A stretch of 64,000 bases of DNA from an uncultured Candidatus Rokubacteria bacterium (GTDB taxonomy: Bacteria; Methylomirabilota; Methylomirabilia; Rokubacteriales; DASRDR01): contig CAWDVE010000010.1 in NCBI GenBank assembly GCA_963805625.1, forward strand, positions 1,920,001 to 1,984,000, given 5' to 3'. Each line of letters opens with the position of its first letter. The stretch's first letter is position 1. Shown piece after piece: positions 5,113 through 14,561 of the stretch. The notes below the pieces were generated by a model. It saw only the letters and a list, made by a program, of their open reading frames with translations, ran no database searches and had not been told where the DNA came from. The translations under genes were made by a program, and so were the position numbers.

Positions 5113-5478
5113 CTAGCACGGCGAATCGATGCACGTGATGAGCTTCATGCGTCCGGCAACGAAATTGCCGACTTGCTTGGCTTGGTCGAACTTTGCCGCC
5201 ACGGCCATGACGACGGCGATGGCTGGCTGCTGGCCGCGACCGACGCAGGTGATCGCAACGTAGGCTCCGTCCTTCTCGCCGGCGACCTCCGCCCCGCTCT
5301 TGTGGGTGTTTCGAAAGCCTTGGTTGCGGGCGACGTCGCCCGCGAATCTGAGGCATGTAGCCTCCGACGCGGTCTTGACAGCGGTCTTCTCGAAGTACAG
5401 CGCGTCGGCACTCGCGCTCGAGGTGACACTCAGGGCGATCACCACGGCAGCGCAGGACACGGGGCATAGCTTGCGCAT
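5113..5478 (-). CDS. Small secreted Cys-containing hypothetical protein
   Basis: Signal peptide ending SASA-D, GGAGG RBS, four Cys in the predicted mature chain. Confidence 0.75.
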   Translation of the reverse strand: MRKLCPVSCAAVVIALSVTSSASADALYFEKTAVKTASEATCLRFAGDVARNQGFRNTHKSGAEVAGEKDGAYVAITCVGRGQQPAIAVVMAVAAKFDQAKQVGNFVAGRMKLITCIDSPC

Positions 5479-5573
5479 CGCGCACCTCCGTTAGACGAGA
5501 AGGAGTGAGACTACAGGGTGCCACCCTGCTCGGGCGGCGCGGCTCTGCTCGCTACGTCGTCCCCAACAGACTG

Positions 5574-6311
5574 CTACCGGAGCTTTCGGACGCGCACGCG
5601 CCGGAGGATCCGCCGGGCGCTGGGCGCGACTGGCGCGGCTCGACGCGACGCTGCCGGTGACCGCTTCTCGATCACGATCCGCGTCGCGCCCCGGATCCGG
5701 AACACCACGCCCTGCGCCGCGTGCACGGTCACCCGCGCGGGCTGGAACCCGTCCCGGCTGGCGTCGACGTATACGGGCGGCACGGTCCGCAGGTTTGTCC
5801 CCGGGGGAATCGGCGTGACCTGGATCTCCCCCTGCCCCGTCCCAGCCTGGCTGGCGACCGAGTAGGTGGTCGGCTCGATGAACGCCAGGGCGAACATGTC
5901 CCCGTCCGACAGGGCCCGGCTGTCGAACACCGCCCCGCCCCCTTCCTTCGCCTCCCCGACCACGACCGCATAGCCGCCCGCGCCGCGCGATGCGTGAAAG
6001 AGCACGTACCCCTGCGGAGACACCGCCGGGGCGCTCTCCGGATGCTCCCGGCAGGCGCACCGGGCCGGCGAGCCGATGGGAAGCGCCACCGAGGCCAGGT
6101 CGATGTTGAGCTGCGTGCCCGCCGTGTCGTCGGTGACCCGGAAGCACGTCGTGCCCACCCGCTCGCCGTCGCGGAGCACCACCGCCTGGTACGTTCCGGC
6201 GGCCGGGAAGCGGTGAATCACGTGCACGAGCAGACCGAGCGCTCCGCTGTCGAAGGACGAGGTCGTCAGCAGCCGATGATTGAGCCGGACGCTGCTCTTC
6301 ACGGTCGTCAC
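5574..6311 (-). CDS. Hypothetical protein with cupredoxin-like beta-sandwich motifs
   Basis: Two FDSxAL...F/P..TY repeats plus GFQPARVTV; start overlaps the upstream stop (GTGA). Confidence 0.7.
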   Translation of the reverse strand: MTTVKSSVRLNHRLLTTSSFDSGALGLLVHVIHRFPAAGTYQAVVLRDGERVGTTCFRVTDDTAGTQLNIDLASVALPIGSPARCACREHPESAPAVSPQGYVLFHASRGAGGYAVVVGEAKEGGGAVFDSRALSDGDMFALAFIEPTTYSVASQAGTGQGEIQVTPIPPGTNLRTVPPVYVDASRDGFQPARVTVHAAQGVVFRIRGATRIVIEKRSPAASRRAAPVAPSARRILRRVRVRKLR

Positions 6312-7246
6312 CCCACGCTTCCCTCGAGCACCAACTCGACGTCGTCGTTGGAGACGGTCAGATCGCGGATCGGGAGCTTCACCGGCACGAGATCGGGCAG
6401 CGGCGGCTGACCCGTCTTGTTGTTCGGATTGGGCGCCTTGTCCAGGATCGGATACGGGTCCTCCAGCTCGAACAGCGGATCATCGGTCACGAAGTGCTCG
6501 ATCAGAGCCTGCCCGATGATGTTCTCGAGACCGAGGCTGACGCCAAGGAGGTCGATGAGCCACTCCTGAACGTCGTCGCCGATGTCCAGGAGGCTGCGCA
6601 CCAGCTCCACGAGCGACCCCAGGATATCCGCGATCGGGCCCGGGATCCCGAGGGCCTCCACCGCGGCCTCGATGGCCTCGTCGAGCAGGTCGCCCACGGT
6701 GTCGGCGACGTCGATGATGTCGATGTCCACCGTCTTGGGATCGAGGAAGAGCTGCCAGGAGTTGGAGAGCTTCGGATCGGGAAGCTGGGCGTCCCACTGG
6801 TCCATGTTTGGGGGGCGGTCCGTGTTCACCTTGTACCGGGTGAGGAGCCGGCCGGTGATCGAGATCTCCGACGTGATCAGGCCGCCCAGCGGGAGCGTGA
6901 TCGAGATGTCCGGGTCGGCGCTGAACGCGCAGAGCGGAGGGATCTCCAGGATGCACCCGCCGAAAGGGTTCGGAATCAGGCAGAATCCCGGGATGCAGAA
7001 CTCCGGGATGTTGATGCCCAGGGTGAGGTTCAGCCGGTCCCACTTGAGGTCGAGCTCCTTCACCTGGACCGTGTTGTCGGCCCTCAGGTCGACACTCCCG
7101 CCTTCCAGGTGGACCTTGATGTCGTACCCGGCGGTGAACGGCCCGAGATCCACGGTGTCCGCCTTCTCGAAGACGAACTTCTCCACCACCTTGGCGAACA
7201 GCTTCTTGAAGGCCTGCTCCGAGGCGGCGACCCGCAGGTGCGGCAT
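6308..7246 (-). CDS. Uncharacterised protein (beta-rich, Cys/Pro hydrophobic loop)
   Basis: ATG at 7246 just after the upstream stop; protein-like MPHLRVAASEQAFKKLF...; GC3-biased frame. Confidence 0.8.
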   Translation of the reverse strand: MPHLRVAASEQAFKKLFAKVVEKFVFEKADTVDLGPFTAGYDIKVHLEGGSVDLRADNTVQVKELDLKWDRLNLTLGINIPEFCIPGFCLIPNPFGGCILEIPPLCAFSADPDISITLPLGGLITSEISITGRLLTRYKVNTDRPPNMDQWDAQLPDPKLSNSWQLFLDPKTVDIDIIDVADTVGDLLDEAIEAAVEALGIPGPIADILGSLVELVRSLLDIGDDVQEWLIDLLGVSLGLENIIGQALIEHFVTDDPLFELEDPYPILDKAPNPNNKTGQPPLPDLVPVKLPIRDLTVSNDDVELVLEGSVG

Positions 7247-7248
7247 GG

Positions 7249-8079
7249 CTAGCTCACCTCGAGATCGATGAAGGCCCGGACCTCGTCCTGCTCGATGGCG
7301 GGGTTGTTGGGCACCGCGGGCGACATCGCCACGGGCTTCGGCTGCACGGAGATCGTCACGTCGTCGGTGATGTCCAGCGCCATCTTCTCGAGCAGGATGC
7401 GCAGCTTCGGCAGGAAGCCCAGCCGGAGCGTCGCGTCGATGACGCACTCGATCCCGCTCTCGAGGTCCGCGGGCTGGATGTCGGAGATCTCGATCCGATC
7501 CACGAACGGCTCCAGGTAGAAGTGCTGGAAGTACTCCCGGAACCGCAGCCCGCCCACCGCGCAGGCGTCCAGGCAGACGCAGATGAGCTGCTGGTCGGGC
7601 GGCAGCACCACCTGGGGCGGCGGCGGGGGCGGCGGCTGGTTCGGGTCCGCGTCCGGGTCCGGCGGCGGCGGAATGAGATCGCTCACGACCTGGGCCGGCG
7701 GGCAGCCGATCCCCGCGCACACGCGGAGGCTGATCGCGAACCGCTGCACTCCCAGCGGGGACAGCTCGGGCGGCAGCGCCACCACGTTCGCGGGATGGAA
7801 GTCGATCTTGACGTCGACGAGCTGGACCGAGAAGTTCAGGGCGAAGTTGGTGCCCGGCAGCGCCAGGGGGTCGATGACCGTGACCAGCGGGTTGCTGTGC
7901 TGGTTCAGGCGCGGGTGCGCTGCGATGGGCTGCCGGCACAGCAAGGCCGGATTGTCCGCGATCGCCTGGGTCGCGTAGTTGAACATCGACGGCCGCTGGA
8001 ACCGGATGTGGTCGATGATCCGGTTGAAGCCATCCTCGTGGAAGGCCCCGAACACGTCGCAGTGGTCAGTGAACGCCAT
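7249..8079 (-). CDS. Uncharacterised protein with Pro-rich insertion
   Basis: 276-aa ORF with GGAGG RBS; MAFTDHCDVFGAFHEDGFNRII...; first gene of a tightly coupled operon. Confidence 0.82.
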   Translation of the reverse strand: MAFTDHCDVFGAFHEDGFNRIIDHIRFQRPSMFNYATQAIADNPALLCRQPIAAHPRLNQHSNPLVTVIDPLALPGTNFALNFSVQLVDVKIDFHPANVVALPPELSPLGVQRFAISLRVCAGIGCPPAQVVSDLIPPPPDPDADPNQPPPPPPPQVVLPPDQQLICVCLDACAVGGLRFREYFQHFYLEPFVDRIEISDIQPADLESGIECVIDATLRLGFLPKLRILLEKMALDITDDVTISVQPKPVAMSPAVPNNPAIEQDEVRAFIDLEVS

Positions 8080-8159
8080 TCACACGCCCTCCGCCGAACG
8101 CCGCCGCGCAGGAACCCGAGGTGTCGTCCGCATGTCACGTTCTCGGAGGTGCAGGGGAA

Positions 8160-8174
8160 GCGAGATTCGCGCCA
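8160..8174 (-). promoter_or_regulatory. Putative sigma54 (-24/-12) promoter
   Basis: Minus strand TGGCGCGAATCTCGC has GG and GC at the TGGCACGNNNNTTGC spacing, ~80 bp upstream of ATG 8079. Confidence 0.6.
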
Positions 8175-8358
8175 ACGGGGCGTGGCAGGCTCGAGAACGC
8201 CGGTTCTGGCTGCTTGGCCGGGCACTTGGGGCGTCGTGTCCCCGCCTCATTGCGAAGCGCGCCTCTCGGGGTGGGTGCACATCCAACAGTGCAATGCCCT
8301 TCCAGGCGGGGGCCTGAATCCACGCGGAACATCGGAGAATCGCCGGGTTCGAGGTCGC

Positions 8359-8397
8359 TGCACAGTAGACAGTGCACCCTGCACTGTGGACGGTGCA
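8359..8397. promoter_or_regulatory. Tandem TGCAC-N8-GTGCA boxes, putative enhancer (UAS)
   Basis: tgcacagtagacagtgca-ccc-tgcactgtggacggtgca, ~200 bp upstream of the sigma54-like site. Confidence 0.5.
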
Positions 8398-8628
8398 TCG
8401 AGGGCGCGCCAGAAGGGACGCGCGCTCCAGACCGCCCGGCAGGTAGATTGACGCACGACGTCACGACACGGCGGGACCGTGTTTCCACAGGGAGAGTCCC
8501 GAGGGCGTCTTTGCCGCCACGGACTCCCGGTCCTCGAACGCCTCCACTAGTGTATAGCGTCTGGTCCCCGAGGACATACTAGCCACTGCGGGTCAGCGGT
8601 GGCAGTGGCCGGATGGTACCGTACACGC

Positions 8629-9258
8629 ATGACCTCCGCTTCGGCGTTCCGGCCGCACCCCTGGCACGGGATCGACCCGGGTCCTCGGTTCCCCGAGCTC
8701 CTCGTCGCGTACATCGAGATCGTTCCCACCGACGGCGTGAAGTACGAGATCGACAAGCACTCCGGCTACCTCAAGGTCGACCGGCCGCAGCGCTTCTCCA
8801 GCTTCTGTCCCTCCCTCTATGGATTCGTTCCGCGGACGCTCTGCGGGCGCGGCGTGGCCAGCTATCCCCTCCCCGGCTCGCCGGCGGTGGATCGTGGGGA
8901 TCGTGATCCTCTCGACATCTGCGTGCTCACCGACCGGCCGATCTCGCGCGGTGAGATCCTCCTGGAGGCACGCCCGGTCGGCGGACTGCGCATGGTCGAG
9001 CGTGGCGAGGCGGACGACAAGATCATCGCCGTCCTCGCCGGCGATCCGACGTACGGAGACTTCACCGACGTGACCGAGCTGCCCTGGGCCGTGATCGATC
9101 GGCTGCGCCACTACTTCCTGACCTACAAGGCGATCCCCGGTGATACGGACGCACCGATCAGCGTCGATCCGGTCTACGGCGCGGAAGCGGCTCGCGGCAT
9201 CCTCGCCGCTGCGCAACGTGACTACGAAGACGAGTACCCGTCGCGGAAGACGCGGTAG
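8629..9258 (+). CDS. ppa: Inorganic pyrophosphatase (family I)
   Basis: HPWHG, KYEIDK, YGFVPRT, DRDPLDICVL, EADDKII motifs. Confidence 0.95.
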   Translation: MTSASAFRPHPWHGIDPGPRFPELLVAYIEIVPTDGVKYEIDKHSGYLKVDRPQRFSSFCPSLYGFVPRTLCGRGVASYPLPGSPAVDRGDRDPLDICVLTDRPISRGEILLEARPVGGLRMVERGEADDKIIAVLAGDPTYGDFTDVTELPWAVIDRLRHYFLTYKAIPGDTDAPISVDPVYGAEAARGILAAAQRDYEDEYPSRKTR

Positions 9259-14254: not shown

Positions 14255-14336
14255 TGGTGCCGGGGCTCGGGTGGACGCCACCGTCCAACTCAATATACGC
14301 CGAACGCCGACCCCCGGGAGCGAGCCGAGGCACGAC

Positions 14337-14561
14337 GACTTCACCGACGTGACCGAGTTGCCCAAGGCCGTGATCGATCGGCTGCGCCACGACTTCCTGA
14401 CTTACAAGCTCCTGACCTACAAGGCGATCCCCCGGTGAGGCGGACGCACGGATCACCGTCGACGATCCGGTCTACAGCGCGGAAGCGGCTCGCAGCATCC
14501 TTGCCGCTGCGCGATGTGACTACGACGACGAGTACCCCTCGCGGAAGACACGGTAACGACC
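14337..14561 (+). pseudogene. ppa: Degenerate duplicate of the ppa 3' end (copy of 9058-9263)
   Basis: gacttcaccgacgtgaccgag...gcggaagac.cggta.cgacc is collinear with 9058-9263, with indels and an internal ctgac(t/c)tacaag duplication. Confidence 0.9.

Follow-up and report, generated by a model that had tools for sequence, protein, structure and literature searches.

The window analysed here is a stretch of 64,000 nucleotides from an uncultured Candidatus Rokubacteria bacterium (GenBank assembly GCA_963805625.1, contig CAWDVE010000010.1, positions 1,920,001 to 1,984,000). On its minus strand it carries a cassette of three tightly coupled genes, termed A, B and C, the first two of which very probably encode the separated halves of a BPI-like protein with two TULIP domains (for tubular, lipid-binding), a double-TULIP. 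Gene A (7249–8079, 276 residues) is followed after 2 bp by gene B (6308–7246, 312 residues), which overlaps gene C (5574–6311, 245 residues, GTG start) by GTGA. A gap of 95 bp separates C from gene D (5113–5478, 121 residues), also on the minus strand. These four open reading frames (ORFs), with their sizes and spacings, had been listed in the original prediction and were all recovered, as were the N-terminal segments and the Cys/Pro loop quoted from them. The product of A has a Pro-rich loop, and a conserved Cys and an acidic motif precede its long helix. That of B is strongly acidic, with 22 Lys/Arg vs 52 Asp/Glu. Gene C encodes a duplicated β-protein, weakly cupredoxin-like in sequence and with a basic C-terminal tail, likely an adaptor, and gene D a secreted-type protein with four Cys. 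A sigma54-type −24/−12 box (8159–8175, minus strand) lies 80 nucleotides before A. Three 18-bp palindromes (TGCAC-N8-GTGCA; 8276–8293, 8359–8376 and 8380–8397, with spacings of 83 and 21) likely constitute an activator-binding enhancer. None of the four proteins had a match in Pfam, NCBIfam, PHROGs or PADLOC, and searches of PDB sequences gave no match under E 0.03. Scanning 46 homologues of B one by one against Pfam returned scattered weak matches only.

The AlphaFold2 models of A (predicted local distance difference test (pLDDT) 85.4, predicted template modelling score (pTM) 0.77) and B (pLDDT 80.5, pTM 0.71) share a common order of elements: a strand, a helix, long strands, a long helix and closing strands. 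In both models the long helix is wrapped by a twisted antiparallel β-sheet, as is characteristic of the TULIP superfamily. The top rows of the Foldseek searches were TULIP proteins for both, the best match of A being BPI (E 6.8e-4). The model of B was also compared, independently of Foldseek, with 48,161 chains, of which the nine best were all TULIPs. These included YceB (Z 12.3, root-mean-square deviation (r.m.s.d.) 3.7, 159 residues aligned), BPI (Z 10.9, r.m.s.d. 4.1, 208 residues aligned), CETP (9.1), P47 (8.8) and OrfX2 (8.4). The tenth match, Aha1 (Z 7.0), was the first non-TULIP. A library of viral structures queried with B yielded nothing at E ≤ 0.001. For A, Z scores were obtained as a second look at the 1000 best chains from Foldseek. 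The model superimposes onto residues 3–229 of BPI with a Z of 6.7 (r.m.s.d. 4.9, 174 residues aligned), and the list of best rows (Z 6.7–5.1) also holds YceB (6.6), CETP (6.6), LBP (6.5), P47 (5.8) and OrfX, with the first non-TULIP only at Z 3.7. Each half spans residues 2–229 of BPI, which correspond to one barrel and the strands of the central sheet. In the alignments of A and B, hydrophobicity is conserved on one side of most core strands. Between A and B themselves, diverse alignments gave only a faint likeness (E 0.012, probability 3.7%), and a profile match in which A resembled B was discarded after it was traced to a read-through tail in one homologue. The BPI/TULIP guess made earlier for A and B is thus supported by both kinds of structure search. 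The pore-forming fold and the toxin complex offered with it found no counterpart, either among the fold matches listed or in Pfam scans of neighbouring genes.

Homologues were collected by sequence searches, with 500 matches among 4893 candidates for B and 240 among 1089 for A. A profile built from 46 B sequences retrieved 333 clusters at 50% identity. Gene order, a check proposed with the prediction, was examined at 55 loci, a sample from the GTDB genome matches listed, and all counts out of 55 refer to these. The order A-B-C is kept at 49 of the 55 loci. Four of the six exceptions lie at contig ends (L014, L031, L040 and L053); of the other two, L046 is without A and L054 has a disrupted B. 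Both appear as degraded cassettes. In L046 (3338–6796), B and C stand behind a large ATPase-like gene, and in L054 (9520–10213), A is in pieces and B is reduced to its first 71 residues. The earlier reading of an operon therefore stands as far as the co-occurrence of A, B and C is concerned; what it had missed is that A and B appear to be halves of one BPI-like protein, which is fused in many relatives.

A and B form a single ORF at 17 of the 55 loci, about 600–670 residues long when complete, with a Gly-rich linker in most. Among the best 150 representatives found with the B profile, all 21 proteins longer than 500 residues carry A ahead of B, and none matches C. The fused form thus contains two tandem TULIP domains in one unit, as in BPI-like double-TULIPs. 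In a tree of the 46 B sequences, the fused/split label requires 2 changes, vs a mean of 13.4 when labels are shuffled, and the fused form is basal when the tree is rooted at its midpoint, which is an assumed root. The fusion and the two TULIP halves indicate that a BPI-sized protein is the natural unit, of which the window carries the split form. From the models and these relatives it is very likely that A and B are each one TULIP barrel, related as the split version of a double-TULIP. By analogy with BPI, we infer that they form a heterodimer joined through the shared central sheet. Two single proteins of about 312 residues (P0143 and P0370) combine an A-type N-terminus with a B-type C-terminus, and are either recombinants of the two halves or assembly chimeras.

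B departs from a plain TULIP barrel in two places. Residues 84–106 (6929–6997, minus strand) form a hydrophobic β-hairpin with paired strands in the model and a mean hydropathy of 1.11, in which Cys 84/106 and 89/98 are predicted to form disulfides. It is a candidate for a membrane-inserting or dimerising tip. Among 109 full-length representatives, 65 have both C84 and C106, 41 have neither and 3 are discordant, and cross pairs among the four Cys show no association. Such pairwise loss fits two disulfides rather than a single metal site, which suggests work outside the cytoplasm. The second place is residues 174–228 (6563–6727, minus strand), an amphipathic helical hairpin between two conserved Asp/Glu clusters. 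Four amphipathic helices (moments 0.28–0.53) take the place of the single long helix of TULIPs in B; the hairpin comprises the first two, with hydrophobic moments of 0.40–0.53 and a low pLDDT of 49–68 at 181–230. The flanking clusters, D174/176/179/182 and D221/224/225/E228, are invariant in all 46 aligned B sequences and kept in 78–91 of the 109 more distant representatives. In A, the corresponding turn from strand to helix carries E197, E207 and E211, all invariant. The clusters of B may form a cation site, possibly for Ca2+, that would clamp the helices as a candidate membrane anchor. The net charge of B homologues ranges from −16 to −44, and 19 of 46 contain a 19-residue window with hydropathy above 1.8. 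The absence of signal peptides from A and B, already stated in the prediction, extends to their homologues: a signal-like N-terminus (best 10-residue hydropathy of at least 2.0) was found in 0 of 49 A and 0 of 46 B sequences. By this crude measure, 9 of the 51 sequences of C also qualify, probably owing to a conserved hydrophobic strand near residues 25–34.

The two halves of C are related to each other (hhalign probability 73–78%). The Pfam family Cupredoxin_1 was matched in 9 of 51 members, always below the cut-off (best E 0.0034), and these matches align profile positions 16–55, the first strands, with the C-terminal part of C. A search of the Atlas gave a cupredoxin lead (0.78), and sequence leads point to cupredoxin/PKD. 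Repeated DSG...PG-Y segments, as judged by eye, presumably resemble the C-terminal part of cupredoxins. Together with the likeness of the C-terminal part of C to the first cupredoxin strands, this points to a circular permutation. Of the residues that could serve as copper ligands, H33 alone is conserved (50 of 51), with no conserved Cys, second His or Met. A single conserved His leaves no type-1 copper site, and a role as a copper protein was rejected as the His/Cys/His/Met ligand set is missing. The cupredoxin-like character proposed for C thus survives as a weak, sub-threshold likeness, without the copper site. The tail of C is basic in 46 of 51 members. No longer fused forms of C (528–2000 residues) were found among 7989 candidates, which is weak evidence.

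A prediction of the three chains together, which had been suggested as a check, gave C a score of 0.60, whereas the best of three controls, one of them with B replaced, scored 0.00. Contact agreement in these runs was at least 46% and partner pLDDT at least 78. In a calibration made on pairs, not trios, 116 of 157 solved complexes attained the score mark, as did 2 of 215 mismatched pairs; of the 157, however, only 18 attained it with a score of 0.60 or under, and both mismatches did so. With the calibration near 0.60, the support for binding is weak. The prediction hints that C contacts the A–B complex in a manner requiring B.

The nearest named relatives of the cassette are in Candidatus Rokubacteria, with 81–86% identity for B. 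The bacteria with listed loci belong to at least ten phyla, including Pseudomonadota, Actinomycetota, Bacteroidota, Chloroflexota, Acidobacteriota, Bacillota and Cyanobacteriota, and the archaea to Nitrososphaeraceae, Bathyarchaeota and methanogens. The hosts therefore span monoderms, diderms and archaea, with very different envelopes. Occurrence is patchy: the cassette was found in 3 of 201 genomes of the phylum and in 2 of 10 other genomes of the genus, and archaea and unrelated bacterial phyla intermingle in the B tree. Two copies lie in phage modules. One is located between the terminase and head-tail/portal genes, on the opposite strand, of a phage contig (L067, 2592–5099), and another just upstream of a central tail fibre gene (L037, 9123–11651); both occupy cargo-gene positions. 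Patchy occurrence, the mixed tree and the phage copies together indicate that the cassette behaves as a mobile, self-contained unit.

Clustering of all ORFs against all across the listed loci revealed no fourth conserved gene. Neighbouring genes, called with our own script, were examined in 176 Pfam scans (173 distinct ORFs), comprising 93 nearest neighbours and 83 further ones; these 83 are 80 ORFs picked from 155 listed second or third neighbours, and 3 repeats. No toxin, transporter, secretion or immunity family recurred in these scans, and the functions found were unrelated. In the window, the cassette is flanked by glycosyltransferases on one side and by a pyrophosphatase and a pyruvate kinase on the other. 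Positions 14330–14440 repeat the C-terminal part of the pyrophosphatase gene (8599–9258) and are likely a duplication remnant. At two other loci, the cassette adjoins similar-looking (by eye) Pro/Cys-rich proteins of 760 residues without Pfam match (L008, 2276–4549; L023, 7585–9888); one of them lies 13 bp upstream of A, the second downstream of C. In L001 (12333–14816), C is followed by a protein of 828 residues with no Pfam match at the thresholds used, in which we take motifs spotted by eye to be papain-like and hydrolase-like.

Gene D had been counted as part of the system. Its product is of the secreted type, as predicted, with a hydrophobic N-terminus (best 10-residue hydropathy 2.8) and four Cys downstream of that stretch. 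D was found at none of the 55 listed loci, and membership in the core was rejected on that ground. It was not found in the two genomes of the genus that carry the cassette, and it occurs in four metagenome loci, three times alone and once after C, in an 89%-identical relative (L063). D is a local passenger outside the conserved cassette. Downstream of D in L063 (4252–4507), part of C recurs along with another palindrome triplet, which indicates that the locus has been rearranged. No terminator was found between C and D, so that read-through into D may occur. Contigs from one metatranscriptome run (share 0.06), most of which belong to relatives, span A, B and C, with D missing; they are uninformative on transcription.

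Sigma54 control, which had been proposed from the sequence, is supported for this lineage. A loose sigma54 pattern has 176 matches in the window vs 215 expected. As it is not enriched, the box alone proves nothing, and the evidence is the layout of box and palindromes. In the genome, 13 palindrome clusters were counted vs about 0.2 expected, with spacings mostly of 21–22 and 82–84. Nine of the 13 have a sigma54-type box 50–130 nucleotides outside, vs 2.5% of random positions; the p-value of 2e-12 for this is overstated, as the pattern was tuned after the sites had been seen. A tandem palindrome pair is present in 11 of 15 genomes of the genus, and the reversed control in 0. The fixed distance to sigma54-type boxes disfavours an interpretation of the palindromes as plain repeats of the repetitive extragenic palindromic (REP) type. 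Four loci (L001, L002, L062 and L063) have the triplet ahead of A. In L001 and L063 a box that passes the pattern was also found, placed as in the window, whereas L002 and L062 gave none. No sigma70 promoters were found. The genome contains rpoN and 39 activator genes, none of which lies in the window, so that the conserved neighbouring activator suggested earlier is lacking. Since the layout was seen in this lineage only, sigma54 control is regarded as a lineage-specific recruitment and not as part of what defines the cassette.

The other targets of this regulon include matrixin-like, thermolysin-like and subtilase peptidases, some with signal peptides, as well as a ferredoxin-like gene, a TPR/HupE-UreJ pair and, next to an NtrC-type regulator, a short peptide; one more target is presumably a PEP-CTERM-like remnant. 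The clusters are located on contigs C4, C10, C13, C16 and C17 of the genome (G000), and 13 tandem sites are present in genome G108. Two other promoter regions are 68–74% identical over about 245 bp, indicating that the promoter module itself was duplicated. On C17 (894751–900400, L072), an NtrC-type response regulator is directly followed by a palindrome triplet and a sigma54-type box, and then by a 44-residue peptide whose N-terminus is hydrophobic and by genes for a solute-binding protein and a histidine kinase. This locus is a candidate for the master regulator, with a possible peptide-signalling loop, of the regulon. On C10 (2143328–2143722, L068), two identical sigma54 boxes in divergent orientation enclose four palindromes, and two genes each for activators and metallopeptidases are adjacent. 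The genus-wide regulon offers a separate handle on the biology of Rokubacteria.

The biological role of the cassette is much less firm than the fold and the split/fused relation. The somewhat favoured reading is that A and B make up a BPI-like lipid tube that docks on membranes and extracts or carries lipids outside the cytoplasm, with C as a partner. A and B would assemble the tube, likely as a heterodimer. The disulfide-stapled hydrophobic hairpin of B and its Asp-flanked amphipathic helices, possibly clamped by Ca2+, would touch the target membrane, and lipids would enter the tube to be extracted and carried. C would serve as an adaptor that gates or targets the tube, in the manner of TipB of Bdellovibrio. 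The complex would act outside the cytoplasm after leaderless release by lysis or in vesicles. In this genus, a sigma54 activator acting in trans would switch on the cassette together with the peptidase genes, which would fit a biomass-scavenging programme. The disulfide signal and the co-regulated peptidases both suggest work outside the cell. A bolder version, possible but rather doubtful, would make the cassette a mobile three-part machine common to bacteria and archaea that harvests lipids or attacks membranes. Leaderless, it would be anchored to foreign membranes through the hairpin and Ca2+-clamped helices and opened by a copper-less cupredoxin adaptor, as a counterpart of BPI/CETP for ether and ester lipids.

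Several observations weigh against the lipid tube. The best Foldseek match of B has an E of 2.1e-3, with none at E ≤ 0.001, and the TM-scores of A and B are only about 0.3–0.37. The Z scores of A are all below 8, a range that the search tool rates as common, so that its placement among the TULIPs depends on how uniform the match list is and on the A–B fusion. Three strands show little or no hydrophobic alternation. The fold alone gives no function: as far as the part of PMC13030710 consulted describes it, OrfX2 employs a TULIP fold for binding the protein NTNH. C89 and C98 co-vary less cleanly than the other pair (70 both, 14 neither, 25 discordant; n=109), and all these Cys counts come from kin sequences and are hence non-independent. 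A and B are without a signal peptide or a recognised export route, and the neighbour scans revealed neither a conserved lipid enzyme nor a conserved transporter. The sigma54 layout was seen only in Rokubacteria loci, the triplet being found in 0 of the other 48 loci with upstream DNA.

Part of this evidence would suit other functions. The cassette could be a membrane-damaging module for conflict or defence, with the TULIP tube as a targeting stalk and the helices of B disrupting membranes of rivals or of the host itself. The patchy and mobile spread, the mixed tree, the two copies in phage head or tail modules and the hydrophobic windows in B homologues agree with such a role, as does the disruption of bilayers in vitro by TipA of Bdellovibrio, reported in the accessible part of a preprint (10.1101/2025.09.09.675085). 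It is nevertheless judged unlikely: no pore-forming toxin is among the listed fold matches, 15 proteins submitted to PADLOC gave no match, no immunity or secretion gene is conserved, the helices of B are acidic, and the weak sequence matches that its helical region has with TcdA (E 1.1) and a phage fibre (E 0.036) seem to reflect composition. The missing signal peptides could instead point to a cytoplasmic lipid shuttle or membrane-stress protein, with the Cys reduced or binding metal. Its presence in monoderms, diderms and archaea despite their envelope differences would then be natural, and the basic tail of C could bind the anionic inner leaflet. This is quite improbable, as the four Cys of B are lost pairwise and not jointly, which suits disulfides over a four-Cys metal site, the acidic clusters would fit Ca2+-rich extracellular conditions, and the co-regulated genes include signal-bearing peptidases. 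A scaffold of the OrfX/P47 type, which would bind and protect not lipids but a protein cargo, either a toxin or a hydrolase whose gene lies elsewhere, would agree with the presence of P47, OrfX2 and OrfX3 among the fold matches and, weakly, with an OrfX-like Atlas cluster (score 0.81, the family being assigned to 18% of members). However, most orfX-p47 clusters adjoin toxin genes according to the part of PMC7020563 consulted, and none recurred in the 176 scans. There is also no Pfam match to OrfX/P47, and YceB and BPI outscore OrfX for B, so that this scaffold is very unlikely. A lipid tube working outside the cytoplasm is retained as the somewhat favoured reading.

By predicted fold, A and B are TULIP superfamily members and, by the tests run, lie outside the BPI family proper, OrfX/P47 and the known bacterial DUF families. 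To our knowledge, the TULIP families known from prokaryotes are few, and their described members are anchored in the envelope, secreted or linked to toxins. The eukaryotic double-TULIPs BPI, LBP and CETP share with the cassette the two barrels and central-sheet strands, in the same tandem order as in fused A+B, which is 565–670 residues long. A and B have about 10% identity to them, are usually two genes and lack both a hydrophobic N-terminus and a match to the Pfam family. B has in addition the Cys hairpin and the helical insert and is acidic, and the cassette has an obligate third gene. The clostridial OrfX1/2/3 and P47 are likewise bacterial TULIPs encoded in multi-gene clusters and forming heteromers, and they match the fold with Z of 5–9. 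Unlike these, the cassette has no linked or recurring adjacent toxin gene, no Pfam or PDB-sequence match and a cupredoxin-like partner in place of further TULIPs. YceB (DUF1439), the best structural match of B, and DUF4403, DUF2140 and DUF2993 are further bacterial TULIPs. The portion of PMC6791001 consulted lists these families with P47 and OrfX2, with no archaea in its main text, and describes DUF4403 as a pseudo-dimeric BPI-like protein, as A+B would be. As far as the sources consulted go, these families bear hydrophobic N-termini or lipid anchors, which A and B lack, and neither protein matches any of their Pfam families. Another TULIP version is fused to Lipocone domains, according to the part of PMC12419801 consulted. 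The fold is called ubiquitous in all domains of life in the accessible part of the Bdellovibrio preprint (10.1101/2025.09.09.675085), so that archaeal TULIPs as such may not be new. No description of the cassette or its regulon was found in the literature searched, which mostly excluded subscription journals and the supplement holding the homologue list of the preprint.

The closest analogue is the TipA/TipB pair of Bdellovibrio (bd2538/bd2539). In the part of the preprint consulted, TipA is secreted, has a double-TULIP structure and binds both lipids and bilayers; a β-sandwich protein from the same operon opens it. Both systems have a double-TULIP followed, with a four-nucleotide overlap, by the gene of a small β-protein, and a hairpin insert at a barrel tip; binding of the partner was shown for TipB and is weakly predicted for C. 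TipA differs in being a single, secreted and homodimerising chain, and TipB is C2-like whereas C is duplicated and has sequence leads to cupredoxins. PDB sequence searches found no sequence link between TipA/TipB and the cassette proteins, and Bdellovibrio is predatory whereas the cassette hosts are not known predators. The cassette is distinguished by being leaderless, split or fused, and accompanied by an obligate non-TULIP partner, in soil archaea and many bacterial phyla. That the halves occur as separate genes bears on how the pseudo-dimeric BPI fold originated. With cultured hosts such as Hydrogenophaga, Nonomuraea and Chitinophaga, the cassette makes the model of a lipid tube gated by an adaptor open to tests outside Bdellovibrio.

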